Positions 2,233 to 63,012 of a stretch of 64,000 bases of DNA are shown piece by piece (the first letter of the stretch is position 1; the number at the start of each line of letters is the position of its first letter). The notes under the pieces were generated by a model. The model saw only the letters and a program-made list of their open reading frames with translations, was not told where the DNA came from and made no database searches. The DNA comes from Candidatus Moraniibacteriota bacterium. Lineage in GTDB: Bacteria; Patescibacteriota; Minisyncoccia; Moranbacterales; UBA1568. Made by a program: the position numbers and the translations under genes. Location of the stretch: assembly GCA_052035095.1 (NCBI GenBank), contig JBPOHW010000007.1:1705-65704 (forward strand), written 5' to 3'.

Positions 2233-2401
2233 GTAAAACTTTTGTATTCGGATAAGAGAAAGAAATTAACGGAGGGGCGAGCAAACTTACAGAAACCACA
2301 AACGAAAGATTCTTTGGGAGGTTATTTCCATCCAAAACCAACAAGCCTCACCTACCAAGCCCCGGAGCATTTCTTGAACGTTCCGAATACAAAAGTTTTA
2401 C
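2233..2401. repeat. Repeat family 1, copy 1: ~125-nt conserved core (2256..2380) closed by a copy-specific 20-bp perfect inverted repeat (2233..2252 / 2382..2401)
   Basis: Core GAGAAAGAAATTAACGGAGGGGCGAGCA...AAACCACAAACGAAAGNTTCTTTGGGAGGTTATTTC...CTCACCTACCAAGCCCCGGAGCATTTCTTGAACG is shared with copies at 11942, 13603 and 60722. The flanks gtaaaacttttgtattcgga / tccgaatacaaaagttttac are exact reverse complements. Confidence 0.85.
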
Positions 2402-2424: not shown

Positions 2425-3471
2425 TTACTTCTCGGAAGTTTTGTTGCGACGAAATATTCCCCTCCATATTTTGGAAACAAAAGACCAAAGACCGACACAC
2501 AGAAGAAGTGTCACGACACCGACCACGAGCAGAATCTTCCACGGAATAATCCAAAAGTCGACGATGCCCTCGATCGGCACATCGCGCTTTCCGTCATCGT
2601 AGACGAGAAGGAGCTTCGCCTGATATTTTCCAAAACGGAATTTCGACGCCTCCTTCCAATCCCATACGAGCTCTTTCACAATATTTCCCCGTTCATCTCT
2701 CACGCCCTTTCCATCCTCCATCTTCTCGCGATACGCCGGGAACCCTTCTGCCCAAGAAACGGAAAATTCTCGAAATGTATTGGGAAGAATATTTCCTTTT
2801 TCAACATTCACATCAAGAAGCGACAATTCTCTCTCACCCTCGCGTCCGACGAAAATATTGCCGCGCGGCGCGATATGCACCGTCCCGGAATTTTTCACCC
2901 GCACGGTAAACGATGCCGGCAGAAATTCATACCACTTCCTGTCCGCGCGAAACTCAATCACCGTCGCCTCGCGCTTCGCGTTCGGAACCTTTGCCTCAAG
3001 GAGCACCAAGACCGCCGTCCCACCGGTAAGACCCGTCTGCCCATCCTTGGGACGTATCGGATCGCCCGCGCGCGAAAATACCACCGCGTAGTAATAGCCA
3101 AACGACGCCGAACTCGGCACCGTAAACGTTGCCGTCACCGTTTTCCACTCGCCGGGCGCGATTGAAAATTCTTTCTCGGAAAAATTCACCCACGAAAGAA
3201 AATCGTCGCCCGATGCGGGCTCAAGAAGTTGCGGCGCGCCATTCTCGCCATAGGCGCCAAATTTCATAAGATCGATCTTGATACGCTCTTCCGCGCTCCC
3301 GTCATTCTTCACCTTGATCGGCGCCGATACGGTGGTTCCCGGTTCGGTCACAAGATTGATCGGCAAAGGCGATGTCACCAAACGAAACTCGCCCGTCTGC
3401 GCGGACGCAGTACGAGCGCCAAAAAATAAAATGTTCGCAAATATCCCGAAAAGAAAAAAGTATTGCCTCAT
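2425..3471 (-). CDS. Cell-surface protein (signal peptide, C-terminal TM anchor), paralogous architecture to 1291..2223
   Basis: ORF 2425..3567 trimmed to ATG at 3471 (MRQYFFLFGIFANILFFGARTASAQ signal peptide). C-terminal TM (ILLVVGVVTLLLCVGLWSFV) and basic tail. Confidence 0.6.
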   Translation of the reverse strand: MRQYFFLFGIFANILFFGARTASAQTGEFRLVTSPLPINLVTEPGTTVSAPIKVKNDGSAEERIKIDLMKFGAYGENGAPQLLEPASGDDFLSWVNFSEKEFSIAPGEWKTVTATFTVPSSASFGYYYAVVFSRAGDPIRPKDGQTGLTGGTAVLVLLEAKVPNAKREATVIEFRADRKWYEFLPASFTVRVKNSGTVHIAPRGNIFVGREGERELSLLDVNVEKGNILPNTFREFSVSWAEGFPAYREKMEDGKGVRDERGNIVKELVWDWKEASKFRFGKYQAKLLLVYDDGKRDVPIEGIVDFWIIPWKILLVVGVVTLLLCVGLWSFVSKIWRGIFRRNKTSEK

Positions 3472-3573
3472 AGAATTGACCCCAGTGTACACCTTTTTTA
3501 TTCTTTTCGAAAGAGAAAGCAAAAAAGGAGCCCTCAAGAGAGCTCCAAAAAAATCGAGTTCACACAAAAAAAC

Positions 3574-5763: not shown

Positions 5764-5855
5764 ACATCGAGAAATCACAAAAAATTTCACCCCTGAAAAG
5801 ATTTCTGTGTTTGAATCATATCGCATTGCTTCGAGCACCTTTTCATGCACGCCGA

Positions 5856-5929
5856 GACCGCAGAAAATAATTTTTCGAAAGTTTGCTCCGATAGAGAGGA
5901 GCATGTGAGAAAAATTGTTTTCTGCGGTC
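5856..5929 (+). repeat. Repeat family 2, copy A: hairpin with a 21-bp AT-rich stem (one G.U on the plus strand) and a 32-nt conserved loop
   Basis: gaccgcagaaaataatttttc [gaaagtttgctccgatagagaggagcatgtga] gaaaaattgttttctgcggtc, followed by gaggcaac. Near-identical to 53575..53649 (shared loop boxes AGTTTGCTCCGA and GAGGAGCATGTGAG). Confidence 0.8.
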
Positions 5930-6202
5930 GAGGCAACTCTCATAGGACTTCCTCACTTTGATGCAGTTCGAGGAAAAACCGAGCACCGGAACGAGGTGTA
6001 TGAGACATACTCCGAGTGAGGAGCGCAGGTTTTGACGAAGAAATGCGCAAAGTGAGGAAAGCCTATCTCAATAAAACAAAGCCATGTATATCCACACAGA
6101 AAAAAGAAATCCTTTACGCGCAACACAAATAGTATACACCAAAAAAAGAACGACCGCTGAAAAAGCGATCGTTCCACTCCGCCTCCAACATCGCGCTCGC
6201 GT

Positions 6203-11234: not shown

Positions 11235-11750
11235 CTACGCTCCCAACACCACGACTATGGGTGCGGTTTTGGCTTCGGGAATTTTGGTGTCTTCAACCGG
11301 CTTTGCCGTGACGCCTTTGTACTCTTTGAGGAGGAGGAGCTGAAGAGCTTTCACCTCATCCGCCATGGAAGCGGAATAATAGATCACAATGCCGGTATTC
11401 GAACCGTTCACATTGCCCGCTTCGGCCTTGATATAGCCGTTTTGTTTGAGGTAGGTCGCCATCTTCCCCGCGCTCCCGCCCGCGGCGCCGCCATTCAAAA
11501 CCTTGATTACCACGGTTGCCGGCGCGTCCGGCTTCACCGGTGCGGATTCCTCTTCCGTTTCTTTCTCAGAATCATCCTTCTTATTGTCCTCCTCCTTGAC
11601 GACACTTTCCGATAAATTTTCCGGCGTGAAATTCGCGATGGACGGTCGCGGATCCGAAGCTTCTTTTTGCCCCTCACGATAGCGAAGCCCAAGAGCGATA
11701 CCGCCCCCAACCACCGCAAACACGAGAAGCGCAATGAAAATTTCTTTCAT
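11235..11750 (-). CDS. LytR C-terminal (LytR_C) domain protein with N-terminal TM
   Basis: N-terminal TM, acidic linker, then VLNGGAAGGSAGKMATYLKQNGY...SMADEVKALQ, which is typical of the LytR_C domain. Confidence 0.55.
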   Translation of the reverse strand: MKEIFIALLVFAVVGGGIALGLRYREGQKEASDPRPSIANFTPENLSESVVKEEDNKKDDSEKETEEESAPVKPDAPATVVIKVLNGGAAGGSAGKMATYLKQNGYIKAEAGNVNGSNTGIVIYYSASMADEVKALQLLLLKEYKGVTAKPVEDTKIPEAKTAPIVVVLGA

Positions 11751-11941
11751 AAAAATGAGCGAGAGACGAGAATCGAACTCGCGTCCTAAGCTTGGGAAGC
11801 TTATGTACTACCATTGTACTACTCTCGCGTTTCTTCCTCCATCCTATCACCCTGCCCCTGGAATTTCAAGGGAAATGTTCTCCAAATCACGGCTTCGTGA
11901 TAGTATGGGAAAGTTAGAGTTCATTCATCACCCGAAAGTGC

Positions 11942-12113
11942 TTTCAAAACTTCCGCCTGCGACAAAGAGAAAGAAATTAACGGAGGGGCGGGCAGGCCTG
12001 CGAAAACCACAAATGAAAGCTTCTTTGGGAGGTTATTTCTCTCCAGGACACACAATCTCACCTACCAAGCCCCGGAGCATTTCTTGAACGTGTCACAGGC
12101 GAAAGCTTTGAAA
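11942..12113. repeat. Repeat family 1, copy 2: conserved core closed by a 23-bp inverted repeat with 3 mismatches
   Basis: Flanks tttcaaaacttccgcctgcgaca / tgtcacaggcgaaagctttgaaa. All three mismatches are C.A on the plus strand and would be G.U on the minus-strand transcript. Confidence 0.85.
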
Positions 12114-12139
12114 AACCGTAATAAAAACATTGTTCTCTC

Positions 12140-13594
12140 ATGAACATCTCAGAAAAAATCATTCCCGCGTGGCTCACCAAAAAACGCCTCATTTGGAGCG
12201 GCATCGTTCTCGCTGTTCTCGGAGGGGGGTTTTTCGTCTTCTTTTACGGAAAATCACATACCACCGAAATCGCCACCAGCACCCTCGCTGTCTTTGAAAA
12301 AGTTTCGAAGCTCCTCCCGCTCGAACCCGATACCAAAAAAGAAATCGAGGTAGTCAACACGCTCGTTCAAGAACTCACTGTGAAAGACGACAAGACCCGC
12401 GTCTTTTTTCTCCTCCTCCAAAACAACTTCGAGCTCCGTCCGGGCGGCGGATTCTTGGGACAGTACGCCGTCGTCAAAATCAAAAACGGCGAGCTCGTGT
12501 CGCACTTCGTTGAGGACGCCAACCTCCTCGATCAGCGCATCAAAAACGCGGGCATCAAAGTAACGCCCCCATGGCCGCTCACCCGCTATATGCAGCTCAA
12601 GCGCTGGATGCTTCGCGACTCCAACTTCTCCCCCGACTTCCCAACCAACGCCCAGAAGGCGGAATATTTCTATCGCCTGGGTGGCGGACGCGAGAAGTTT
12701 GACGCCGTGATCGCGGTCAACGCCGATGTGCTCGATCATGTCCTCGCGCTCACCGGTCCCATCACCGTCCCCGGCTACTCCGGCACCTACTCCTCCGAAG
12801 GTGGCGCGCTCAAACTCGAAGAGGCCGTCGAAAAAGCCTATCTCGGCGATGACGTTCCCGCGGAGGTAAAAGAGGGTCGCAAAAACATTATGAAGAAACT
12901 CGCCGCGGAAATCTTGAAACGTCTCGCCACCGTCAACAATATCCCCAAAATCGCCACCCTCGCCCAGGAAGAGCTACGCAACAAAAACATTCAGCTTTTC
13001 TTCCACGATAGTAAATTGCAAGCGCTCGTCGAGAGCGTCCACTGGGACGGATCCGTCGCCAAAAACTGGAACGGCGACTTCCTTATGGTAGTCGACGCCA
13101 ATATGGGTGCCCTCAAAAGCGATTATTTCGTAAAGCGCTCTCTCGATTATTTTGTCGACTTTACCGCCGGAGCGCGCCCCAAGGCAACCGTCACCTATAC
13201 CTATAATCATACCGCTCCGGGCGGTGACTGGCGAACGAGCGACTATCACACCTACACCCGCATTTATGCTCCCAAAGGCTCAACCTATGTCGACAACAGC
13301 CGCGTCAAAACCGGTGGCGTCGGCGCCCAAGACGACACCGCGTTCAACAAGACCGTCTTCGGTTACAAGGTGGACGTCCTTATGCGACAGACGCTTCCCA
13401 CGGGCATCTCCTACGAACTCCCCGAGACCGTCACGGAAGAAAATTATCGCCTCCTCATCCAAAAACAATCCGGCATCGGCACCCTCCCCGCAACCATCCG
13501 CCTCAAAACCTCAAAAGGCGAATTCACCGCCACCTACGATCTCAAAAAAGACCTCGCCCTCGAGATCAAAGAAATAGAAGAGCAGAAGAAATAA
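12140..13594 (+). CDS. Membrane-anchored protein, DUF4012-like (tentative)
   Basis: 484 aa. N-terminal TM (LIWSGIVLAVLGGGFFVFFY). Motif LLLQNNFELRPGGGFLGQY resembles the DUF4012 signature. Confidence 0.6.
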   Translation: MNISEKIIPAWLTKKRLIWSGIVLAVLGGGFFVFFYGKSHTTEIATSTLAVFEKVSKLLPLEPDTKKEIEVVNTLVQELTVKDDKTRVFFLLLQNNFELRPGGGFLGQYAVVKIKNGELVSHFVEDANLLDQRIKNAGIKVTPPWPLTRYMQLKRWMLRDSNFSPDFPTNAQKAEYFYRLGGGREKFDAVIAVNADVLDHVLALTGPITVPGYSGTYSSEGGALKLEEAVEKAYLGDDVPAEVKEGRKNIMKKLAAEILKRLATVNNIPKIATLAQEELRNKNIQLFFHDSKLQALVESVHWDGSVAKNWNGDFLMVVDANMGALKSDYFVKRSLDYFVDFTAGARPKATVTYTYNHTAPGGDWRTSDYHTYTRIYAPKGSTYVDNSRVKTGGVGAQDDTAFNKTVFGYKVDVLMRQTLPTGISYELPETVTEENYRLLIQKQSGIGTLPATIRLKTSKGEFTATYDLKKDLALEIKEIEEQKK

Positions 13595-13602
13595 AAGAAA
13601 TT

Positions 13603-13788
13603 CAGGACTTCCACATTTGTCAAACCTGCCTGCCGGTAGGCAGGGGGAGAGAAATCAACGGAGGGGCGGGCAGACTTACAAAAAACGCGAGAGAAAGCTT
13701 CTTTGGGAGGTTATTTACATCCATAACACAAAAACTCACCTACCAAGCCCCGGAGCATTTCTCGAACGTGACAAATGTGGAAGTCCTG
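13603..13788. repeat. Repeat family 1, copy 3: conserved core closed by a 20-bp perfect inverted repeat; carries an extra GC-rich palindrome (13625..13644)
   Basis: Flanks caggacttccacatttgtca / tgacaaatgtggaagtcctg. Internal cctgcctgccggtaggcagg hairpin sits immediately 5' of the core. Confidence 0.85.
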
Positions 13789-13872: not shown

Positions 13873-15621
13873 ATGGAAACGACACCGATCGAAACCATCC
13901 GCCACTCGCTCGCGCATCTCCTCGCGATGAGCATTCTCGAACTCGACCCCAAGGCAAAACTCGGCACCGGTCCATCAACCGACACCGGCTTCTTCTATGA
14001 CTTTGAGTTTTCAAAAGAAAAACCTGTCTCGGAAAACGATTTCAAGTCGATCGAAAAAATCATACGGAAACTCATCAATAAAAAGATTGATTTCACTCGC
14101 GAAGAAATATCCGAAACCGAAGCGAAAAAACGCTTCAAAGATCAACCCTACAAACTCGAACTCATCAAAGAAATCGCCAAGCGCGGCGAAACGATCTCCC
14201 TCTACAAAACAGGTGATTTCGTCGACCTCTGCGAAGGTCCGCACGTCAAAAATACCGGAGAGATTCCCGCCGACGCGTTCAAGCTCACCCGCATTGCCGG
14301 CGCGTATTGGAAGAGCGACGAATCAAAGACACAACTCACGCGCATCACCGGCATCGCCTTTGAAAGCAAAGCCACGCTCGAAAAGTACCAGTGGCAACAG
14401 GAAGAAGCGAAGAAACGGGATCACCGAAAGCTCGGTGCGGAACTTGAGCTCTTCACCTTTGATGATCAGGTTGGTCCCGGACTTCCCCTGTGGCTCCCCA
14501 AGGGAACCGTGATTGCGGATGAACTTGAAATGCTTGCCAAAGAAACCGAAACGAGAGCGGGGTACCTCCGCGTCCGCACGCCACACATCGCCAAAGACGC
14601 ACTCTACCAAACAAGTGGACATCTCCCTTACTACGAAGACAGTATGTTCCCGCCGATGGAATACGAGGGTGAGAAATACTATTTGAAAGCCATGAATTGC
14701 CCGCACCATCACAAGATTTTCGCCGCGAGTCCAAAAAGTTACCGTGATCTTCCACTTCGACTCGCCGAGTACGGCACCGTCTATCGCCATGAAAAGTCCG
14801 GCGAACTTTTCGGTCTTATGCGCGTCCGTATGATGCAGATGAACGACGCGCATATTTATTGCACCGAAGAACAATTCGCGGAAGAATTTCGCGCCGTGAA
14901 TGATCTCTATCTCCACTATTTCAAAATCTTTGGTATCGAAAAATACCTGATGCGATTCTCGACTCACTCGATCGAAAAACTCGGAAAGAAATATGTGAAC
15001 GAGCCGGAGCTTTGGAAAAAAACCGAAGATATGGTACGAACCGTCCTCAAAGAATCCAACATTCCCTTCGTGGAAATCCCGGATGAAGCTGCCTTTTACG
15101 GACCAAAAATCGATGTGCAGGTCTGGAGCGCCATCGGTCGAGAATTCACGCTCGCGACCAATCAAGTCGATTTCGCCGTCCCCGCCCGATTCGGTCTCAC
15201 CTATACCGATTCGGAAGGGCAGAGGCAAACACCGCTCTGCATTCATCGCGCGCCTCTCGGCACACATGAGCGATTTATCGGTTTTCTGATCGAGCACTAT
15301 GCTGGCGCTTTCCCTTTCTGGCTCTCTCCTGTCCAAATTGCGATTCTTCCGATCGGCGAAACGCATGAGAAATACGCCGAAGAACTTGCCAAAACATTCC
15401 GCAACGAAAGCTTCCGTGTCGAAATACACACCGACGAAAGCCTCGGCAAGCGCATCCGTGAAACTAAGATACACAAAATCCCCTACACCCTCGTCGTTGG
15501 CGACCAAGAAATCGAATCCAAAACCGCCTCTGTCGAGTCACGAGACACTGGAAAAATCGGCACACTTTCGATCGAAGAAATTTTAAACCGACTCCGAAAA
15601 GAACGAGATAATCGACAGTAG
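13873..15621 (+). CDS. thrS: Threonyl-tRNA synthetase (short form lacking the N-terminal TGS region)
   Basis: Class II aaRS motifs. Zn-binding CPHH region, anticodon-binding C-terminal domain and editing-domain remnant. 582 aa. Confidence 0.9.
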   Translation: METTPIETIRHSLAHLLAMSILELDPKAKLGTGPSTDTGFFYDFEFSKEKPVSENDFKSIEKIIRKLINKKIDFTREEISETEAKKRFKDQPYKLELIKEIAKRGETISLYKTGDFVDLCEGPHVKNTGEIPADAFKLTRIAGAYWKSDESKTQLTRITGIAFESKATLEKYQWQQEEAKKRDHRKLGAELELFTFDDQVGPGLPLWLPKGTVIADELEMLAKETETRAGYLRVRTPHIAKDALYQTSGHLPYYEDSMFPPMEYEGEKYYLKAMNCPHHHKIFAASPKSYRDLPLRLAEYGTVYRHEKSGELFGLMRVRMMQMNDAHIYCTEEQFAEEFRAVNDLYLHYFKIFGIEKYLMRFSTHSIEKLGKKYVNEPELWKKTEDMVRTVLKESNIPFVEIPDEAAFYGPKIDVQVWSAIGREFTLATNQVDFAVPARFGLTYTDSEGQRQTPLCIHRAPLGTHERFIGFLIEHYAGAFPFWLSPVQIAILPIGETHEKYAEELAKTFRNESFRVEIHTDESLGKRIRETKIHKIPYTLVVGDQEIESKTASVESRDTGKIGTLSIEEILNRLRKERDNRQ

Positions 15622-40777: not shown

Positions 40778-41707
40778 TCACGTCGTCGCTGGCGCGAAAA
40801 ACTCCGCAATTTGTCGAACGATGACGAGCGACGCGAGCGCGACCACGATACCGAGGAGTGCAAAAGTGACAATCTTCTTCGCCACCCCGATCCGATTCAT
40901 ATCCCCTGCCGCGCCGAGGAACATAATGCCCCCGATAACGAGGAAAATAATCGCGAGAATCCCTACGATTCCAAGAAGGAAATTGAGGACCGAGAGAAGG
41001 ATATCCGCGGCGCTCTTTGCACCCGAGACCTCCGGCGGAACCGTGCCGCCCCAGCCCAAGACCGTCGCGATTTCCTTGAGGAAGGTCGGCGCCAAAATCC
41101 CGATCGCGAGCCCGATGAGGGCCGCCGTGATCGCGAGCTTCGCCGCCGTCACCTGCGACTGTCGCCCGCCGGACGTAATGTACAAGACCGCTCCAATCAC
41201 GATAAAGACGAGCGAAAGCACGACAATGACACCCTGCAAAGCATACAACAACGCTGTCAAAACTTCTTGTACCGTATCATATTTCAAGGGATTGGGAAGC
41301 GTTATGCTCACCGACGAGCCGGATCCGGTTGTTGTCCCTCCACCACCCGTACCCCTTGGGGGACAATAATTTGGTTTCGTTGGATCCGTACATATAGATT
41401 TGCATCCTGTCTGTGTCGTATCATCATCCGCAGTACAAGTTGTCTTACAATAACTCGCATTGCACGTGGAGGAAGAACTGCTTGTTTCGCAGCAAATATA
41501 CCCTTCCGAACTACTGCAATTATCAAACGTTCCCGATTTAATAACTCCAGGAGAGGGGCAGGTTTCTTGGCATACGCATGTTTTTCCGCTACTGCATGAT
41601 GCCTGACATGTCGCCGCTTTTGCCCCTTCCGGTGCCACTGCAAACGCCCCCAACACCAGCACCCCCAACACGGCCGCTACCCTCCCAAATTGTGCCATTG
41701 TTTCCAT
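40778..41707 (-). CDS. Cys-rich secreted protein fused to two tandem TrbC/VirB2-like pilin modules
   Basis: Signal peptide (METMAQFGRVAAVLGVLVLGAFAVAPEGAKA). Roughly 110-aa Cys/Ser/Thr-rich region (CQASCSSGKTCVCQETC...), Gly-rich linker, then two pilin-like hydrophobic hairpin modules (…LYITSGG… and …MFLGAAGDMNRIGVAKK…). Confidence 0.65.
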   Translation of the reverse strand: METMAQFGRVAAVLGVLVLGAFAVAPEGAKAATCQASCSSGKTCVCQETCPSPGVIKSGTFDNCSSSEGYICCETSSSSSTCNASYCKTTCTADDDTTQTGCKSICTDPTKPNYCPPRGTGGGGTTTGSGSSVSITLPNPLKYDTVQEVLTALLYALQGVIVVLSLVFIVIGAVLYITSGGRQSQVTAAKLAITAALIGLAIGILAPTFLKEIATVLGWGGTVPPEVSGAKSAADILLSVLNFLLGIVGILAIIFLVIGGIMFLGAAGDMNRIGVAKKIVTFALLGIVVALASLVIVRQIAEFFAPATT

Positions 41708-41723
41708 AATGAGTAGTGAGTAG

Positions 41724-41741
41724 ATAGTAGCGAGTAGATAG
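41724..41741. repeat. Left 18-bp terminal inverted repeat (ATAGTAGCGAGTAGATAG) of the four-helix-bundle cassette; embedded in AGTAGNN heptamer tandem repeats
   Basis: Exact reverse complement at 42229..42246. Region 41711..41741 reads gagtagtgagtagatagtagcgagtagatag. A second arm at 41774..41793 forms a long hairpin with 41719..41738. Confidence 0.8.
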
Positions 41742-41802
41742 AAAATAAAATGTTTTCTACCTACCAAATACTGTCTACTCGTTGCTATCTACTGATAAAT
41801 AC

Positions 41803-42248: not shown

Positions 42249-43091
42249 TCACCCTCCCCACGCCGTCCCGCGCAACAAAGCATCGATCGCGATAATAATC
42301 ACGAGCCCGGCGAGCGCAACAATCACGCCCACGATGGAAAATTTCATATTCCGCTTCGCGGTCTCGATCATATTCATATTCCCCGCCGCCGCCAAGTACT
42401 GAATGCCCGAAATCACAAACGCGATAATCGCGAGGAATCCGAAGAGATAGAGCATCCACTTCATAAGATTGGTGACGATAAGCGCCACCGACGTTTCGGA
42501 GAGCCCCGTATTGAGCGGGAAACACACCCCCGCGTATTCCTTGAACTTCGCCGGATCGCACTTCACCGCCGTCGTCCCCGACCCGGTAGTACCACCCGTC
42601 TTGCAAAACTTCTTATTTGTCGCTTGTGAAGCGCATTGCGACGCACTGCACGTCGTATCCTCAGTCTCCCCCGTCACGCAAGCCGCCTTACAACCCCCAC
42701 CGGTACAGGATGAGGAAGAAAGGGTTTTACAACACACCAATTTATTATCTAAAGCTCTGCAATAACCATTGTCAGTAGAAACGGTAGTTTTTGGAGATAC
42801 ACAACCGGACATACTCTCACACGAACACGTCCCACCCGAACCGCAATTGCTGGTACAAGTGTTTCCGGAAGCAGTGACACAACACACTTGACCCAAACTG
42901 GATTCACAGTGATCTGAATCTGGACCAGATATTCCGGAAGAACACGTAGCACTCGCGGGAATACAGGTTCCGCTGCTCCCATTGTACGTACATGTCTGAG
43001 CAAAGACATCTCTGCCAAAAAACAAAGCCCCTGCTACAATGAAGCAAGAAAAAACAAAACTCAAAAACGAAATTCTCTTCATAAGAAACAT
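42249..43091 (-). CDS. Cys-rich secreted protein fused to one C-terminal TrbC/VirB2-like pilin module
   Basis: Trimmed to ATG at 43091 (MFLMKRISFLSFVFSCFIVAGALFFGRDVFA signal peptide); TGATG overlap with the upstream pilin gene. Roughly 150-aa Cys-rich region, then …GIQYLAAAGNMNMIETAKRNMKFSIVGVIVALAGLVII…. Confidence 0.65.
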   Translation of the reverse strand: MFLMKRISFLSFVFSCFIVAGALFFGRDVFAQTCTYNGSSGTCIPASATCSSGISGPDSDHCESSLGQVCCVTASGNTCTSNCGSGGTCSCESMSGCVSPKTTVSTDNGYCRALDNKLVCCKTLSSSSCTGGGCKAACVTGETEDTTCSASQCASQATNKKFCKTGGTTGSGTTAVKCDPAKFKEYAGVCFPLNTGLSETSVALIVTNLMKWMLYLFGFLAIIAFVISGIQYLAAAGNMNMIETAKRNMKFSIVGVIVALAGLVIIIAIDALLRGTAWGG

Positions 43092-43465
43092 CAAAAATAC
43101 GAATCGGCGCTCAACCACACATCGACTGCCTGAACGATCACGTACCCCATCAGCGCGACAATCACCCCGACGATAGACCACTTCATCGCTTCTTTGGCCG
43201 TTTTGATCTGACCGTCATTTCCGGCGGCCGTAAGATAGAGGATGCCCGAAATCACAAAGCCGATAATCGCGATGAAGCCGAGAAGTCCAAGGATCCAATC
43301 CATCGTACTGCCCGCGATATCAATAATAGGCGCAACTGGCAATCCCGACTGCATCGGCCCCGTAAGCGCCGGGTTCTCCCCCGTCTGCGCAAGCGCGCCA
43401 AGTGGCAGAAGCGCCATTCCCCCAGCTATTCCCCTCCGAACCCGCGAAACTATTGTGTGTTTCAT
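43091..43465 (-). CDS. TrbC/VirB2-like small pilin-family membrane protein
   Basis: 124 aa. Signal peptide, then two hydrophobic helices separated by LYLTAAGNDGQIKTAKEAMKWS. Paralogous to 43555..43926 and 44105..44485. Confidence 0.7.
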   Translation of the reverse strand: MKHTIVSRVRRGIAGGMALLPLGALAQTGENPALTGPMQSGLPVAPIIDIAGSTMDWILGLLGFIAIIGFVISGILYLTAAGNDGQIKTAKEAMKWSIVGVIVALMGYVIVQAVDVWLSADSYF

Positions 43466-43554
43466 ACAATATATTTAAAATAAGCTTTTTTCACTTTAAC
43501 GAAGACCAGCCTACCGGCAGGCAGGAATGCGCGAAGTGAGAAAATCTTAAAAGA

Positions 43555-43926
43555 TCAAAATGTTATTTCTCCCCCAAGCCACAAATCAACTGCTTGTATA
43601 ACCACGTACCCAACAAGCGCGACGATCACCCCGACGATAGACCATGTCATGGCGGTTTTCGCCGTTTTGATCTGACTGTCATTGCCTGCCGCCGTGAGAT
43701 AGAGGATGCCGGATATGATAAAACCGATAACGGCAAGAAACCCGACCAAGCTCAACATCCAGAGCATAAGATTGGAAACGATGCTATCGACACCACTCGA
43801 AGGAAGTCCGGATTCGGTCTGGAGCGTGCCGGACTTCGGATCGGACCACTGCGCAAGCGCCGGATGCGCAAGAAAACTCCCCGCCCCCAAAAAGAACCCC
43901 CTTGAAAAAATCTTCACGAATTTCAT
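43555..43926 (-). CDS. TrbC/VirB2-like small pilin-family membrane protein
   Basis: 123 aa. …GFIISGILYLTAAGNDSQIKTAKTAMTWSIVGVIVALVGYVVIQAVDLWL…. Confidence 0.7.
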   Translation of the reverse strand: MKFVKIFSRGFFLGAGSFLAHPALAQWSDPKSGTLQTESGLPSSGVDSIVSNLMLWMLSLVGFLAVIGFIISGILYLTAAGNDSQIKTAKTAMTWSIVGVIVALVGYVVIQAVDLWLGGEITF

Positions 43927-44104
43927 ATATCAAATTGTACCACAAAAAAAGAAAATTCGAAAAAAAATTATTCCACACGAACCATAAAGAGAAAATATTT
44001 CCTGTCAAGCCCTCATTCTTCATTCACCATTCTCCATTCCTCCTCCAAAACCAAAACGCCCCCGAAAATCGGGAGCGCCTCGGCAAGAAATCTTCGAAGA
44101 ATTC

Positions 44105-44485
44105 CTATATATTCGTATTCGAACTCGCGTTGAGCCACGCATCCACCGCTTGTACGATGACATAGCCGACGAGCGCCACAATGACACCCATAATGGAATA
44201 CATCATCGCGGACTTCGCCGATTTGATCTGGTCTTCACGTCCCGCCGCCGTGAGATAGAGAATACCCGCGATCACAAAGCCGATAATCGCGATAAAGCCG
44301 AGAATGGCGAGGAGATAATTCATGGTCGTCCGAATGATCTCATAGATAGACGAGTCCGGCGTCCCGCCGCTTGCCGCGTTGTTGTCACCCACCGACCACT
44401 GCCCAAACGCCACCATCGGCACTGCCATAAAAGCAACCACCAACGCGAACGCGCCGATATTTTTGAAAATAAGCGATTGTTTCAT
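44105..44485 (-). CDS. TrbC/VirB2-like small pilin-family membrane protein
   Basis: Trimmed to ATG at 44485 with strong SD AGGAGGT. …GFVIAGILYLTAAGREDQIKSAKSAMMYSIMGVIVALVGYVIVQAVDAWL…. Confidence 0.7.
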   Translation of the reverse strand: MKQSLIFKNIGAFALVVAFMAVPMVAFGQWSVGDNNAASGGTPDSSIYEIIRTTMNYLLAILGFIAIIGFVIAGILYLTAAGREDQIKSAKSAMMYSIMGVIVALVGYVIVQAVDAWLNASSNTNI

Positions 44486-44915: not shown

Positions 44916-45539
44916 TCACGAAATCCGTTCTTTGGTTTCAAGTGTAATTGCCGCCGTGCCAATATATTGGCTCACTTCTTGCGTAAGCGACTCCAAATAC
45001 CGTGGAAATTTTTTGGCGTACTCGGCGAACTTTTTCCGACCTATGGAGCGAAGATCCAATTCTTGTAAGCCCATATTCCCTTTCCCTCGCGCTACCATAT
45101 AGAGCATATCCAGAAGCGCCTTCTCCGGTTCGGCAATGTACATGCCATTTTCCAGCCGATACCCGAAAAAAAGATTTTCCTTCACCTGCCGAAATTCAAT
45201 CGCCGTACCGAAAATACTCATCCTCTTGGTTTGTTTGAGCGTTGCAAACGTCTCCGTCGCCGGCATTTGACTCAAAATTCCATACCGAGAAAGCGCGCTC
45301 TCAAAAGAGAGATAGGACGGGTAGTAGAGTTGATTGGCGATTTTCGGTACATCGATAAGTGCCGCGCTCGAGGCATACACGCCGCGTTTCAAACGAGTGA
45401 GCGCGCCCTTTTCCGTCAAGCGAGAAACCGCCACTTTCAAACTCGGTCGCGAAAGCGCGGTTATCTTCTCCAAATCGGCCACCGTAAAGTAGTCTCGATT
45501 CAATGTCTGCAATCTCTGCATGAAGTCAAAGGTGGTCAT
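44916..45539 (-). CDS. abiEi: AbiEi-family type IV antitoxin / transcriptional regulator (wHTH N-terminal domain)
   Basis: Trimmed to ATG at 45539 (ATGA overlap with the abiEii stop). MTTFDFMQRLQTLNRDYFTVADLEKITALSRPSLKVAVSRLTEKGALTRLKRGVYA is the typical AbiEi N-terminal fold. Confidence 0.6.
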   Translation of the reverse strand: MTTFDFMQRLQTLNRDYFTVADLEKITALSRPSLKVAVSRLTEKGALTRLKRGVYASSAALIDVPKIANQLYYPSYLSFESALSRYGILSQMPATETFATLKQTKRMSIFGTAIEFRQVKENLFFGYRLENGMYIAEPEKALLDMLYMVARGKGNMGLQELDLRSIGRKKFAEYAKKFPRYLESLTQEVSQYIGTAAITLETKERIS

Positions 45540-46216
45540 AGACTTTCTTTCTTCAGCCAACGGTCGAGGAGTTGCCACTTCCCTTGCGGCAAGAGCCGGT
45601 GCAAATCGCCGCGCACCTCATGTACCGAATACTTCCCAAAATTCATCTCGGGTGACTCGCCGCGCTGACTCCTGATAAACCACAAATCGAAAATATCACG
45701 AACACGAAGCGGATCGATACTCTCTTTTTCCCGTTCAATTTGCGCGATGGTCGCCACTTGCGCCAAAACCGTTACCGGAGTCACCTCGCTCGAAAGCTGT
45801 TTGAGAATATAATCCTCATTCTGTCGCCATTCTTTTTTTCGACGTGATATTTCCACCTTGATGCCAAGCGGACGCTCTAGCGTCGGATCGGTAATCACAA
45901 AACGAGCATAGAGCGTATAGTATTTCTGCAAAGCTTCATCAAGAGCAACATACGGTACGGACTTCGCCGTGTCATGGCACCACTCTTGAAACTTCGGAGC
46001 GGAAATATCGACGAGTTGCGTAAAATCCAAATCATCGGAGTATCGGTACGACCCATACGCAAGTCGAAGCGCCGTCCCTCCGCGAAAAACAAGATCCTTC
46101 CCGAAGTTGCTCTCAAAAATACGGCTCAAAAGAAGCATTTCATACTCTTCCCACACGATACGATCCACCGAGATTCCCAGCTGTTTCTGCTTTTCCAGTG
46201 CCAATTGTTTGTTCAT
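45536..46216 (-). CDS. abiEii: AbiEii/AbiGii-family nucleotidyltransferase toxin (DUF1814)
   Basis: FRGGTALRLAYGSYRYSDDLDF NTase motif. 226 aa. Lies upstream of abiEi, which reverses the canonical order. Confidence 0.65.
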   Translation of the reverse strand: MNKQLALEKQKQLGISVDRIVWEEYEMLLLSRIFESNFGKDLVFRGGTALRLAYGSYRYSDDLDFTQLVDISAPKFQEWCHDTAKSVPYVALDEALQKYYTLYARFVITDPTLERPLGIKVEISRRKKEWRQNEDYILKQLSSEVTPVTVLAQVATIAQIEREKESIDPLRVRDIFDLWFIRSQRGESPEMNFGKYSVHEVRGDLHRLLPQGKWQLLDRWLKKESL

Positions 46217-46414
46217 ATAGTTATAAGATAGTTAACAAATTCGTTAACTTACCTATAAGTATACGCAACTCCCTCTTTCCTGTCAATCCCATAATTTTCG
46301 CGGCATCAAATTCAGTTTTGTATGCAAAACCAGACAAAACTGAATTTGAATTTCTGTCATTCCTTTCCAAATACCTGCAATTTTCTCAATCAGGAAGAGA
46401 GCACTTCACAACAC

Positions 46415-49949: not shown

Positions 49950-50001
49950 ATCGCTTTTTTATTTTTTGGTACATTGACACCTTCCATTCGAGAAACCACC
50001 C

Positions 50002-50184
50002 GAAAACGTCTGATTTTGAGTGCAGTTCGACCCGCTTCGCCAGAGCTACAGCGAGGCGAGGGAAGATGTGCGGAGTGGAATGAATTGTTTGGGAAACAAT
50101 TCATTGTATGTAAACATACAGCGTCCCCGCCGAGGCGGGGGAGCATCTGATCCCGCCAAGGCGGGACCAAAATCAGACGTTTTC
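50002..50184. repeat. Intergenic hairpin cluster bounded by a 17-bp perfect inverted repeat (GAAAACGTCTGATTTTG / CAAAATCAGACGTTTTC)
   Basis: Contains a 12-bp perfect hairpin aatgaattgtttGGGaaacaattcatt (50079..50105), the dyad tgtatgtaaacataca (50104..50120), and GC hairpins ccccgccGAGgcggggg and tcccgccAAggcggga. Confidence 0.8.
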
Positions 50185-50185
50185 G

Positions 50186-53456: not shown

Positions 53457-53574
53457 CATCCGACTTGAAACACACGAAACAAATACAAAACTCCGATACA
53501 TTCCGGAGTTTTGTTGGTATAATGTCACTATAGCTAACCTATATACTCTGAAAATTTCTACCATGCGCGCTGAA

Positions 53575-53649
53575 ACCGCGAAAAATAATTTTTCTCTAGT
53601 TTGCTCCGAGCCCAATGAGGAGCATGTGAGAAAAATTATTTTTCGCGGT
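53575..53649 (+). repeat. Repeat family 2, copy B: perfect 20-bp AT-rich stem hairpin with 35-nt conserved loop
   Basis: accgcgaaaaataatttttc [tctagtttgctccgagcccaatgaggagcatgtga] gaaaaattatttttcgcggt, then gaggcaac. Located between infB and cca. Confidence 0.8.
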
Positions 53650-53692
53650 CGAGGCAACGTTCAAAAGAGCAGAAATTGAACAAATTGAGAGT

Positions 53693-58034: not shown

Positions 58035-60647
58035 TTACCCAGAACAACTCACGCAATCGTCCTTCACTTCACCTGAAAGGCTCCGGACATAATAGACCGT
58101 TTTAATGCCGCTCTTCCATGATTTGAGATAGTAGCCGTAGAGATCCGCCGGCGAGACGCGCGCGGGATCAATCATCCACTCGAAACTAATGGACTGATCC
58201 ACCCATGGATAGATCGTGGCGATCATCTCGATCACGTCGTTCATATCAAGGTGAATATACTCCTTGTAGTACCAGAAATTTTCTTTGGAGAGCTTGGGCG
58301 CGACGCGAATCGTGGGCGCCGAGAGATTCGTCTCGACGAAATAGCGCTTGTAGATCGGGAGAAGCGCCGCCGTCGTGCCCACGACCCCCGCCGTCGACGT
58401 GTTCGGCGCGGGTGCCGTGTGATAGGCGAAACGCACGCCGTGCTTTTTCATATCGACAAAAAGCGTCTCCCACGCCTTCGGCTCATCGGTATGCTTCGCG
58501 AACCATTCTTTCTTTCGTCCCAAGAGGACGCCCTTTTCATACTCGCTTCCCTTGTAGAGCGCGTATGTTCCCCGCTCTTTGGCGAGATCGACCGACGCGC
58601 GATAGGTGGAGAAAGCGTACTGTTCGAAGAGCTTCTCGACCGCCACCCGAGCCTCTTGGCTATCATAGGAAAGCTTCCGCGTCGCGAGATACTCGGCAAG
58701 CCCCAAATAGCCAAGCCCCACGCTCCGATACCGCAAGGCCGTTCGCTCCGCCTCCTTGATGGGATAAAAATTGAGCGTGATCACATTATCAAGGACACGC
58801 ATTGCGATCGGAAATGTCTCGGTGATATCTTCTTTGGTATGTACTTTCGCCACATTGATCGATGCCAAGTTGCACACGACGAGGTCGCCCGGCTCATAGC
58901 GAATGACGATTTTCCCATCCTCGATCGCCTCACTCACGAACTTTGACGCCGAGGTATTCTGACAAATCTCGGTACAGAGCTGAGTCGAATAGATATTGCC
59001 CGCGTGTTTATTGGGATTCAATTGATTCACCGTATCGCGGAAAAACACATAGGGCATCCCCGTTTCGACGACCGCCTTCAAAAATTGCTTGAAGAGTTCC
59101 TTCGCCTTTACGGTTTTCTTCATCGTGAGCCGATCGTCGCCCTCAAGTCTTTCATACAGCGCGTCAAACTCCGTCCCGAAATGATCCTGAAGCGCCGTCT
59201 GGTGAAGCGTTTCCACCTCGTGCGGGTCAAACAGCGTCCAGTCGCCGTCTGCTTCGAGCCGCCGCATAAAGAGATCGGGCACCGAGACGGCCGGGAAAAC
59301 ATCAAACGCCTTCGATCGAATATCGCCCGTCTCGGTCTGCAAATCGAGAAAATCATGAATATCGAGGTGCCAGATATCGAGCGTCACGGAGATGGCGCCG
59401 AGTCGCGCGCCGAGCTGATTGACCGCGACCGCCGTATCATTGATAACCTTGGTCCAGGGATTCACACCCCCCGACATACCGCCGATCCCGCGAATCGCGC
59501 TCCCGCGCGAGCGAATATTTCCGAGATAGACCCCTACGCCGCCGCCAAACTTGGAAATCTGCGCCATATTCTCGACCGCATGGTAAATTCCGCGGAGATC
59601 ATCATCCACGTTGATCTTGAAGCAACTCGACAACTGATGATAATTCGTCCGCGCGTTGATAAGGGTCGGCGTCGGAAGCGAAATCTTCTGCGTCGAGCAC
59701 GCGTCATATATCTTCTTGGCAAAGGCGAGACGATCCTCCTTTTTCTCGGGAATCGCGAGGAAGAGCGCGATCGCAAGATACATTTCCTGCGGCAATTCCC
59801 ACACTACTTTGTTTGGATTCAAAAGGTACCGCTTCGCGAGCGAGAGAATCGTCGTATATTCATACTCCTCATCCCGCGCGCGCACGAGAAACTTCCCCGC
59901 TTCGAGAATCTCCTTTTTCGTATAAAACTTGTAAAAATCCTTGTAATAAAAGCCTCGCTCCACATAGTGAGCCATGAGCGCCGCAAAACTTTCGGGCGAA
60001 TAGAGCTCCGCCATCGATATTTTTCGATTCTTGGTCGCCTGCTTGTACAAGCTCCCCAAGAGAAACCGCGCCGCCACATGTTGCCAGGCGATATTCTCGA
60101 CACTCACCAAATCAATACAGGCTTTGATGAGAAGTTTATTGATATCGGACGTCTTGATATCCTCGACCAGATTCTTCTTGAACGCCTCCATCAAATCCTC
60201 AAATCGGCACTCCGATTCAAAACCGACCGCGCACTTATCAAAAATTTTCCGGAGTTTCCCGGCATCAAAGCGCTCCTTGTCGCCATGCGCCTTGGTTACC
60301 ATGAGCGAATGTTTCTCGAACTGCTGCGCCAATTTCTCGTGCTTTTCCTCGCGTTCTTCTCGGCGCTTTTCACGATAGAGAATATACGCCTTGGCCATTT
60401 CGAAGCGATTCGACCGCACCAAGTTGCGCTCCACAATATCCTGCACATCCTCAACCGAGGGCACGCGATGCACGAGAAGCTCGGTAAACACATGCTCCAT
60501 ATCGCGGATCACATTGTCGGTAAACGTCGGGATGAAGCTCTTATCCACCTCCCCGACCGCGTCCGCCGCAAGAAGCACCGCACTTTCAATTCGACTTCGA
60601 TCAAAGTCTTCGAGATCCCCGTTTCGTTTGGCTATTTTTTGTATCAT
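58035..60647 (-). CDS. nrdA: Class I ribonucleotide reductase large (alpha) subunit with N-terminal ATP-cone
   Basis: Trimmed from TTG (60668) to ATG 60647 (MIQKIAKRNGDLEDFD = ATP-cone). Catalytic region with conserved Cys/Asn/Glu context (…SSCFKINVDD…, …NLASINVAK…). C-terminal CxxC-type tail DDCVSCSG. Confidence 0.85.
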   Translation of the reverse strand: MIQKIAKRNGDLEDFDRSRIESAVLLAADAVGEVDKSFIPTFTDNVIRDMEHVFTELLVHRVPSVEDVQDIVERNLVRSNRFEMAKAYILYREKRREEREEKHEKLAQQFEKHSLMVTKAHGDKERFDAGKLRKIFDKCAVGFESECRFEDLMEAFKKNLVEDIKTSDINKLLIKACIDLVSVENIAWQHVAARFLLGSLYKQATKNRKISMAELYSPESFAALMAHYVERGFYYKDFYKFYTKKEILEAGKFLVRARDEEYEYTTILSLAKRYLLNPNKVVWELPQEMYLAIALFLAIPEKKEDRLAFAKKIYDACSTQKISLPTPTLINARTNYHQLSSCFKINVDDDLRGIYHAVENMAQISKFGGGVGVYLGNIRSRGSAIRGIGGMSGGVNPWTKVINDTAVAVNQLGARLGAISVTLDIWHLDIHDFLDLQTETGDIRSKAFDVFPAVSVPDLFMRRLEADGDWTLFDPHEVETLHQTALQDHFGTEFDALYERLEGDDRLTMKKTVKAKELFKQFLKAVVETGMPYVFFRDTVNQLNPNKHAGNIYSTQLCTEICQNTSASKFVSEAIEDGKIVIRYEPGDLVVCNLASINVAKVHTKEDITETFPIAMRVLDNVITLNFYPIKEAERTALRYRSVGLGYLGLAEYLATRKLSYDSQEARVAVEKLFEQYAFSTYRASVDLAKERGTYALYKGSEYEKGVLLGRKKEWFAKHTDEPKAWETLFVDMKKHGVRFAYHTAPAPNTSTAGVVGTTAALLPIYKRYFVETNLSAPTIRVAPKLSKENFWYYKEYIHLDMNDVIEMIATIYPWVDQSISFEWMIDPARVSPADLYGYYLKSWKSGIKTVYYVRSLSGEVKDDCVSCSG

Positions 60648-60721
60648 ACTGTTTCTTTTTGAGGTCAAAAAAACTCACCGCCCCCATGCGGAACTACAAT
60701 AAAGAAAAGCTATAGCAGAAA

Positions 60722-60906
60722 GAAATTCGCGTATTCGGCTAACCTGCCTGCCGGCAAGGCAGGGAGAAAGAAATTAACGAAGGGGCGAGCAAACGTACAA
60801 AAACCACAAACGAAAGCTTCTTTGGGAGGTTATTTCTATCCATAACATACAAACTCACCTACCAAGCCCCGGAGCATTTCTTGAACGTGCCGAATACGCG
60901 AATTTC
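60722..60906. repeat. Repeat family 1, copy 4: conserved core closed by an 18-bp perfect inverted repeat; carries GC-rich palindrome 60743..60763
   Basis: Flanks gaaattcgcgtattcggc / gccgaatacgcgaatttc. Internal cctgcctgccggcaaggcagg. Lies 75 nt upstream (minus-strand sense) of nrdA and just downstream of sodA. Confidence 0.85.
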
Positions 60907-60921
60907 GGACGCCACAGGACA

Positions 60922-61548
60922 TTATGCCTTTTTTTCAACAACACTCCAATCAATCGCCTTGAAAAAGGCTTCAATATAGTCCGCGCGCTTCAATCCGTAG
61001 TCGAGCATAAAGGCATGCTCAAACACATCCATCACGAGAATTGGCATCGCTCCGGAAAGATGTCCGCCATCATGCTCATTGATCCACGTATTGAAAAGCA
61101 TTCCCGTCTGCGGATCTTTGGCAAGAATCACCCACCCGATCCCTCGCATCGTCCCCGTCCCAACAAAATCCTTCCTCCACTTCTCAAAACTCCCGAAAGA
61201 ATTTTCAAGAACCTCCAACATCCGACTCCCAACTCCCGACCCCGCTTTTTCCCCTTTCTCTCCACCTAATTCTTCATTTTTCATTTTTAATTTTTCATTT
61301 CCCTTCATATTCCCAAAGTACAGCTCATGCAACCGCATTCCATTCCATTCCCACCCAAATCGCCGCTTGAGCTCCGCGTATTCCGGCGTCCCCGGCTCTT
61401 TCGTCGCGAGAAGCTCGAGAAGTGTATTCACATTTTTCACATATCCTTCATAGAGCGCAAAATGATTTGTGAGAAGCACATCGCTCATTCCCGGCATTCC
61501 CAAAAGATGCTTAAAATCTTGTATTTCATATTTCATACCGGTTGACAT
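60922..61548 (-). CDS. sodA: Fe/Mn superoxide dismutase with internal low-complexity insert
   Basis: N-terminal HFALYEGYVKNVN (SOD helical domain). C-terminal DVFEHAFMLDYGLKRADYIEAFFKAIDW (D-x-W-E-H signature). Insert KGNEKLKMKNEELGGEKGEKAGSG. Confidence 0.8.
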   Translation of the reverse strand: MSTGMKYEIQDFKHLLGMPGMSDVLLTNHFALYEGYVKNVNTLLELLATKEPGTPEYAELKRRFGWEWNGMRLHELYFGNMKGNEKLKMKNEELGGEKGEKAGSGVGSRMLEVLENSFGSFEKWRKDFVGTGTMRGIGWVILAKDPQTGMLFNTWINEHDGGHLSGAMPILVMDVFEHAFMLDYGLKRADYIEAFFKAIDWSVVEKKA

Positions 61549-62710: not shown

Positions 62711-62738
62711 AGAGTTGTTAAAAAGTTTATCTTACAAA

Positions 62739-62934
62739 TTTATCTTACGCGAAATAATTTACTCTTCTGTCATCCCGACCGGAGCGACCTAAGGAGCGAA
62801 GTGGAGGGATCTGCGTCTTAACAGAAAGGCAGTGCTTCCAGAAAGATTGAGATTCCTCGGCTTCGCTCGGAATGACAGAGTTCTTTTGTTTTGTGGCTTA
62901 AAAAAAAGACTTCTATTATTTCGCGTAAGATAAA
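62739..62934. repeat. Long imperfect palindromic element in the prx/rluD divergent intergenic region; 20-bp perfect outer IR plus ~23-bp imperfect inner IR
   Basis: Outer tttatcttacgcgaaataat (62739..62758) / attatttcgcgtaagataaa (62915..62934). Inner tctgtcatcccgaccggagcgac / tcggcttcgctcggaatgacaga. Adjacent direct repeat tttatcttac x2 (62726, 62739). Confidence 0.75.
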
Positions 62935-63012
62935 TCAAAAATACAAAAGCCGTTTGTATATGATACGTGCCGCATTTCGCGCTGTCAACTTTCCGCTTCC
63001 TTTGCCAAAATA

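Follow-up and report, generated by a model that had tools for sequence, protein, structure and literature searches.

The repeats that we designate family 1 are closed by a long inverted repeat (P1) that is a maintained helix and not a chance inverted repeat, and their orientation tracks replication, not transcription; the types of mismatch in P1 across 21 copies do not show which strand is transcribed. Two traits of the family are unusual, namely that its arms drift while its core is conserved and that its orientation follows the replication strand. Family 1 behaves as a dispersed repeat that is gained and lost.

The window, by which we mean the whole stretch of 64,000 nucleotides analysed (1-64000), lies on one replichore and carries about two thirds of its coding bases on the minus strand. 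Four copies of family 1 are found in it, all in one common orientation:

2233-2401, minus strand: copy 1, with arms 2233-2252 and 2382-2401 forming a perfect 20 bp, between the minus-strand genes 1291-2223 and 2425-3567.
11942-12113, minus strand: copy 2, in a divergent region, ending 27 nt before the start (12140) of the plus-strand DUF4012 gene.
11942-11964: left P1 arm of copy 2, 23 nt, TTTCAAAACTTCCGCCTGCGACA, with mismatched bases A11949, C11953 and C11960.
11965-12090, minus strand: core of copy 2, with P2, P3, a 28-nt block and a copy-specific GCAGGCCTGC hairpin.
12091-12113: right P1 arm of copy 2, 23 nt, TGTCACAGGCGAAAGCTTTGAAA, with mismatched bases A12095, A12102 and C12106.
13603-13788, minus strand: copy 3, with arms 13603-13622 and 13769-13788 forming a perfect 20 bp and an optional 20-nt hairpin at 13625-13644, between the two plus-strand genes DUF4012 (12140-13594) and ThrRS (13873-15621) and hence antisense to local transcription.
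60722-60906, minus strand: copy 4, with arms 60722-60739 and 60889-60906 forming a perfect 18 bp and an optional 21-nt hairpin at 60743-60763, between sod (60922-61548) and nrdA (58035-60647).

Family 1 copies are about 165-190 nt long, intergenic and non-coding. Read on the minus strand, they are closed by P1, an inverted repeat of 17-23 bp in which the inner 9 bp are semi-conserved (GCCRAAYRC/GYRTTYGGC) and the outer 11 bp or so are variable. P1 is followed by a short asymmetric internal loop, and two further helices were recognized on the same strand: P2 (AAGAAAU/AUUUCUU, 7 bp), in which one A-U pair is replaced by G-C in two unrelated copies, and P3 (GGGGC/GCCCC, 5 bp), which is invariant. 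The centre of about 80 nt is conserved and non-palindromic, and consists of long invariant blocks with two variable U/G-rich stretches; the 28-nt block of the copy 2 core (12057-12084) is invariant across the four window copies. An extra hairpin of 16-21 nt lies between P1 and P2 in five copies. One hairpin of 20-21 nt, CCTGCCTGCCGG(T/CA)AGGCAGG, was met inside family 1 copies only (13625-13644 and 60743-60763 in the window, and loci L012 and L013), and it is present in copy 3 and missing from its ortholog in L015, just as it is present in L012 and missing from the ortholog L011; this presence and absence between orthologs implies recent insertion, loss or exchange between copies. A small open reading frame of 15-24 codons after an AGGUGA motif on the minus strand was considered and rejected, as its frame is shifted by indels and every codon position in the conserved blocks is invariant. 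Because indels break every frame and the blocks show no codon-position pattern, the element is taken to be non-coding.

Copy 2 had drawn attention in the first-pass annotation as the only one of the four window copies with an imperfect stem, with three mismatches in 23 bp that are all C.A on the plus strand, and both observations were confirmed, coordinates and pairing included. Gapless pairing of the two arms leaves three mismatches (A11949.C12106, C11953.A12102 and C11960.A12095) beside 20 Watson-Crick pairs. Read on the plus strand, each of the three is A.C or C.A, and read on the minus strand each is G.U; the stems of copies 1, 3 and 4 are perfect over 20, 20 and 18 bp. Folded as RNA, the minus strand of copy 2 reaches -73.7 kcal/mol (z -5.5) and the plus strand -55.2 kcal/mol (z -2.5). 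Three transition-type mismatches that all fall on one strand are no more than chance would give (two-sided p=0.25). In the sister strain (locus L015, with a ThrRS 95% identical to that of the window), position 12106 is T and forms a normal A-T pair with 11949, and for this reason the A11949.C12106 mismatch is a strain-level difference; the remaining two mismatches are common to the window and the sister strain. On these comparisons, the copy 2 mismatches look like young point mutations without strand preference.

The annotation had further placed three of the four copies at the 5′ side of minus-strand genes. The distances given for copy 1 (10 nt from the start at 2223) and copy 4 (about 75 nt from the nrdA ATG at 60647) hold, and the distance of copy 2 from the gene 11235-11750 was about right, but a tRNA gene and a promoter-like site lying between the two had been overlooked. 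The gene 11235-11750 encodes a LytR_C protein, and tRNA-Gly(CCC) occupies 11757-11828 on the minus strand between it and copy 2. Directly upstream of the tRNA gene, and so between it and copy 2, stands a minus-strand promoter-like site (11869-11841; TTGAAA, 17 nt, TAGGAT with a TG). Minus-sense co-transcription of copy 2 is unlikely.

The proposal that mismatches in the closing helix betray the transcribed strand was examined in the window and in related genomes, over 21 complete copies in all. Their P1 helices hold 406 Watson-Crick pairs, 9 A.C(+), 7 G.T(+) and 1 other mismatch, where (+) denotes the plus strand, and the 9 versus 7 (p=0.80) amount to the outcome that the first-pass annotation itself had named as refuting its proposal. 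Five of the seven G.T(+) mismatches share a single column (GTGTTTGG/CCAAATAC) among non-orthologous copies of two genome sets, and when these five are counted as one event the tally becomes 9 versus 3, which is not significant either. Transition-type mismatches make up 16 of the 17, an excess that is not significant against the transition fraction of 0.78 between the window and the sister strain (p=0.085) and agrees with the local spectrum of mutation. The orthologous pairs L003/L004 and L002b/L014 each carry different single mismatches. G.U and A.C are similarly rare in P1, at about 2% each. RNA helices usually hold G.U pairs far more often than this, and the low share in P1 suggests that full Watson-Crick complementarity is what is kept. 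As the mismatch types are symmetric across the 21 copies, they are uninformative on the transcribed strand. What does set the minus strand apart is the orientation of all 22 copies and the G.U pairs needed by a candidate inner helix, both described below. A strand call from the three mismatches of copy 2 therefore fails and gives no basis for annotating a minus-strand RNA; the part of the claim that stands is that the helix is maintained.

Maintenance of P1 is evident from covariation. In a cleaned alignment of the 21 copies, both sides change in 18 of the 21 P1 pairs, and 95.7% of P1 cells are paired, compared with 43-53% when the partners are slid; none of 500 shuffles reached the observed values. 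From the covariation together with these controls it follows that P1 is a maintained helix. Compensatory changes of the kind expected of a structured RNA read from one strand were thus found in P1, whereas only 1 of 9 pairs changes on both sides in P2 and P3 does not vary. An all-against-all covariation scan of the core was too noisy for use. Within the core, signs of structure are few. Folding of the core by itself is unremarkable on either strand (z -1.07 on the plus and -0.89 on the minus), and consensus folding of the core gives -18.1 kcal/mol on the plus strand versus -15.4 on the minus. A possible inner helix (P4), GGUAG/CUGCU, can form only through G.U pairs of the minus strand and has one-sided changes only; sliding its partners lowers the paired fraction from 93% to 31-60%. 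Another pair, G39.U140, also requires G.U on the minus strand.

Orientation was considered against both replication and transcription. The plus-strand GC skew of the window is -0.09 to -0.22 in every 4-kb bin, islands of plus-strand genes included, and therefore the minus strand is the G-rich leading strand. In 22 of 22 copies the G/T-rich strand of the element, which is the minus strand in the window, lies on the G-rich strand of the genome, with a local skew of -0.08 to -0.18 on the C-rich side; over at least 17 independent loci, this rule has p=1.5e-5. Copy 3 and L003/L004 obey it too, with both of their neighbours encoded on the plus-form strand of the element. Relative to genes, the copies are distributed much as the window's spacers are: at about 11 of the 17 independent loci (~65%) both neighbours are minus-sense, at 2 (~12%) both are plus-sense and the rest are mixed, and the 47 window spacers comprise 30 minus-minus, 5 plus-plus and 12 mixed ones. 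No consistent orientation relative to transcription was found, and at two or more independent loci both neighbours are antisense to the element; copy 3 and L003/L004 cannot be co-transcribed in the minus sense, and for copy 2 this is improbable. Since the contexts match the background while the strand rule holds everywhere, the orientation of family 1 tracks replication, not transcription. A search for a conserved promoter, U-tract or terminator at the family 1 copies found none. The flank past P1 on the minus strand is T-richer (5.4 of 12 versus 2.1); a terminator role was considered and discarded, the minus strand being T-rich anyway and a real U-run occurring in few copies only. If the orientation rule holds genome-wide, copies could mark the direction of replication in fragmented CPR assemblies, and the rule would point to an undescribed single-strand DNA or RNA process in the CPR.

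The distribution of family 1 is narrow and patchy. A 20-mer from the invariant block was found at nine loci in species-representative genomes, of which JAYRSG01, a Candidatus Moraniibacteriota MAG, holds eight and a MAG labelled Bdellovibrionales the ninth, and a two-block pattern was found in five metagenome contigs; viral contigs scanned with the two-block pattern and a search of a phage DNA collection gave no match. A profile search of all DNA retrieved returned 22 copies, 21 of them complete, all with E<=1e-38, and the sister-strain locus L015 added two orthologous copies. Family 1 was thus met in a narrow group of Candidatus Moraniibacteriota (CPR) genomes. Rfam 15 at the gathering threshold recovered only six tRNAs in the whole window, and at E<=10 the region 11850-12200 gave chance-level snoRNA and lncRNA matches only, on both strands. 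A literature search returned no description of such elements in CPR bacteria. The genes that flank the copies are of unrelated function, including those for a WxL-like protein, LytR_C, DUF4012, ThrRS, NrdA, SOD and a peroxiredoxin; a riboswitch-type regulator was set aside on account of these unrelated neighbours.

Sites are occupied and vacated between close relatives. At the site of copy 3, family 1 is present in the window and in L015 and absent in L018 and L019: a relative with 92% ThrRS identity carries a different hairpin there (TAGAGACGCCCC...GGGGCGTCTCTA), and in L019 (82% ThrRS identity) DUF4012 and ThrRS are adjacent, with a plain terminator and no element between them. In the window, the DUF4012 gene (12140-13594) lies on the lagging strand with copies 2 and 3 in direct orientation on either side. 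The orthologs of the copy 4 site in L007 and L025 are without family 1, and in L005/L007, loci of a related MAG, family 1 takes the place of a different element that the window carries at 62738-62935. Relatives with ThrRS or NrdA 82-92% identical yielded no copy in 33 kb of sequence, and relatives whose ThrRS is 68-70% identical yielded none in 45 kb. The short-read contigs L005, L016, L023 and L024 break inside copies. In the leader of nrdA (~60648-60700), one block (minus strand TTCCGCATGGGGGCGGT) is conserved with the related MAG, and the rest of the spacer is not alignable.

Other repeats and features were noted in the window and in relatives. The element at 62738-62935 is distinct: its arms are perfect over 21 bp (ATTTATCTTACGCGAAATAAT), its core, with GTCATCCCGA...TCGGAATGAC, is unrelated, and it has no Rfam match. 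Another arm-bounded element, at 50001-50185, has perfect 18-bp arms (CGAAAACGTCTGATTTTG) around a 149-nt core with a small hairpin (TCCCGCCAAGGCGGGA), and a TT-loop form of this hairpin module (TCCCGCCTTGGCGGGA) is inserted in the family 1 copy of L002 (5478-5493). A repeat of about 100 nt occurs at 5844-5947 and 53562-53668 in two copies that are 83-87% identical, each with a hairpin of 22-26 bp (ACCGCGAAAAATAATTTTTCTC / GAGAAAAATTATTTTTCGCGGT). A 12-bp hairpin module, (G)TAGAGACGC...GCGTCTCTA(C), is found in L018 (~1230-1290) and L007 (~1700-1760) at the sites of window copies 3 and 4, and is absent from the window. Four repeats of about 236 nt, 62-71% identical, lie at 42258-44352 within a run of minus-strand genes; the open reading frames 40778-41767 and 42249-43181 match a type IV secretion pilin-like domain (PF18895). 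An AbiEi/AbiEii toxin-antitoxin pair occupies 44916-46216, with a 19-bp hairpin just downstream (46306-46349).

Conservation within family 1 is uneven. The mean pairwise identity between copies is 87% in the core and 49% in the outer arms. In orthologs whose flanks are 78-82% identical, the cores are 85-86% identical, no better than in random pairs, and the arms are 95-100% identical in two of the three pairs. Together with the turnover of the optional hairpin, these identities suggest that copies may exchange sequence within the core, or that the few free positions may be saturated. About 80% of core columns are conserved everywhere, including loci with flanks only 78-82% identical, and such conservation at diverged loci suggests that the core is under selection in place. 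The largest deviations at conserved core columns are those of copy 3 (8) and L003 (7), both antisense to local genes, and antisense copies deviate more than the others (Mann-Whitney p=0.012, in a small sample of n=4 versus 10 with an orthologous pair among them). That antisense copies are less well conserved hints at a role at the RNA level.

A role of this kind is what the first-pass annotation had in mind, namely that family 1 acts as an RNA read from the minus strand. In the fuller form considered here, P1 would serve as a double-stranded stem for processing or stabilization, or free the core, with most copies lying in leading-strand operons; RNase III, for example, would cut the outer, variable part of P1 and leave the conserved inner 9 bp, G.U pairs being tolerated. 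We regard this as a serious rival to the explanation preferred below, though a less probable one. The covariation of P1 and its division into a semi-conserved inner and a free outer part agree with it, as do the contexts in which about two thirds of copies have both neighbours minus-sense, but that share equals the share of minus-minus spacers in the background. Both the candidate P4 and G39.U140 rely on minus-strand G.U pairing, and P4 loses much of its pairing when slid; in P1 itself, however, mismatches show no strand bias and G.U is as rare as A.C. Copy 2 folds better as a minus-strand RNA, whereas the core by itself folds unremarkably and its consensus folding does not favour the minus strand. 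Antisense copies deviate more at conserved columns, and yet copies 2 and 3 and L003/L004 keep P1 in places where they cannot be co-transcribed in that sense. The lack of a conserved promoter or terminator in the copies searched and the patchiness of the family among close relatives also count against a minus-strand RNA. The opposite assignment, to a plus-strand RNA element such as a 5′ or 3′ UTR structure of plus-strand genes like DUF4012, we consider very improbable. It would account for the placement of copy 2 just before the start at 12140 and of copy 3 after the stop at 13594, for the recurrent G.T(+) column of five copies and for the slightly better consensus folding of the core on the plus strand, but most copies lie between genes of the opposite strand, the flanking functions are unrelated and A.C(+) is as common as G.T(+).

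Transposition at the level of double-stranded DNA is improbable as well. Family 1 would then be a cut-and-paste MITE, its arms the terminal inverted repeats recognized by a DDE transposase encoded elsewhere and its core a passenger, and a multicopy, intergenic element with terminal inverted repeats that are semi-conserved on their inner side, gained and lost between relatives, has the right general appearance. The pattern of conservation is, however, the reverse of that in a typical MITE, with a core more conserved than the outer arms, and the strict single orientation against GC skew is unexpected for double-strand cut-and-paste; no target-site duplication was seen, and no transposase was found among the 40 window open reading frames scanned. 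Insertion into the loop of a pre-existing target palindrome was also considered and rejected, since the arms share a family-wide consensus (roughly RACTTCCGYATTTGGCA) that is absent from sites without the element.

The explanation that we tentatively prefer, at somewhat less than even confidence, is that family 1 is a multicopy stem-closed repeat with a single-stranded DNA stage at the replication fork, which would serve its spread or the correction of its arms. The grounds for it are an orientation that follows replication, gene contexts no different from the background and symmetric types of mismatch. We infer that the hairpin matters in single-stranded DNA exposed at the fork, where the G/T-rich strand, always located on the G-rich strand, is part of the lagging-strand template. 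Spread or arm correction could be coupled to replication, for example through single-strand transposition; alternatively, intrastrand template switching might copy one arm from the other. Most copies would then be transcribed passively within leading-strand operons. The sequence of P1 drifts mostly by paired transitions, with its Watson-Crick complementarity kept near-perfect, and the A.C pairs of copy 2 look like recent single transitions that have been neither compensated nor removed yet. Against a single-stranded DNA stage stand ends unlike those of IS200/IS605, the apparent selection of the core in place, the deviation of antisense copies and a GGUAG/CUGCU pairing that is possible only with G.U. 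The 40 window open reading frames scanned, which cover a small part of the genome, include no HUH/Y1 transposase, TnpB, reverse transcriptase or integrase, and the arm boundaries of the 21 copies, where the exact helix ends are ambiguous, show neither a conserved flanking target nor a consistent target-site duplication.

The genomes of CPR bacteria are small and poor in repeats; this lineage nonetheless carries several stem-closed intergenic families that swap places between close relatives. More speculatively, and in our estimate unlikely, family 1 and the arm-bounded elements that replace it would together form an undescribed, replication-oriented kind of CPR element, either a non-autonomous element moved or corrected by some enzyme as a folded single strand at the fork, or a functional RNA excised from operon transcripts by way of its 20-bp stem, and with a conserved core of 120 nt selected at each locus.

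Several known systems share features with family 1. In Enterobacteria, the ERIC/IRU sequences are imperfect palindromes of about 127 bp in transcribed intergenic regions, which keep their stem by compensatory changes and are gained and lost. Family 1 resembles them as a multicopy, non-coding, intergenic element with a long stem retained through compensatory changes and with gain and loss between relatives. However, ERIC sequences are palindromes for most of their length and are met in either orientation, whereas family 1 has a non-palindromic centre of about 80 nt, keeps one orientation relative to GC skew and has arms more variable than its core. The Correia/NEMIS elements of Neisseria and the Rickettsia palindromic elements (RPE) are MITE-like, with transcripts that form hairpins, and RNase III cleaves Correia RNA. 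Both are similar to family 1 in size, in terminal inverted repeats of about 20 bp, in their location between genes of operons and in the long stem that they place in transcripts. Correia elements differ in having conserved 26-bp terminal repeats and a TA duplication, where family 1, whose sequence was compared with Rfam and a phage collection only, has drifting arms and no visible duplication.

A link to replication is also known from IS200/IS605-derived palindrome-associated elements and REP/RAYT repeats, in which transposition of single-stranded DNA is tied to the lagging-strand template and leaves no target duplication. A strict orientation relative to the direction of replication (22/22 here), the absence of target duplication and hairpin-forming DNA are all shared with family 1. 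In those systems, however, a separate hairpin lies near each end, the flank holds a conserved tetra- or pentanucleotide and a Y1 transposase is involved, none of which was seen in family 1; its ends pair with each other (P1-P3) and not as separate hairpins, and its flanks are not conserved. The attC sites of integrons are likewise imperfect inverted repeats that act as a folded single strand with strand-specific activity. They have conserved outer R and L boxes and a variable centre, which is the reverse of family 1, and family 1 does not lie beside cassettes or an integrase as judged from the 40 window open reading frames scanned. Overall, the data fit a dispersed stem-closed repeat of the general ERIC/Correia/RPE/REP kind.
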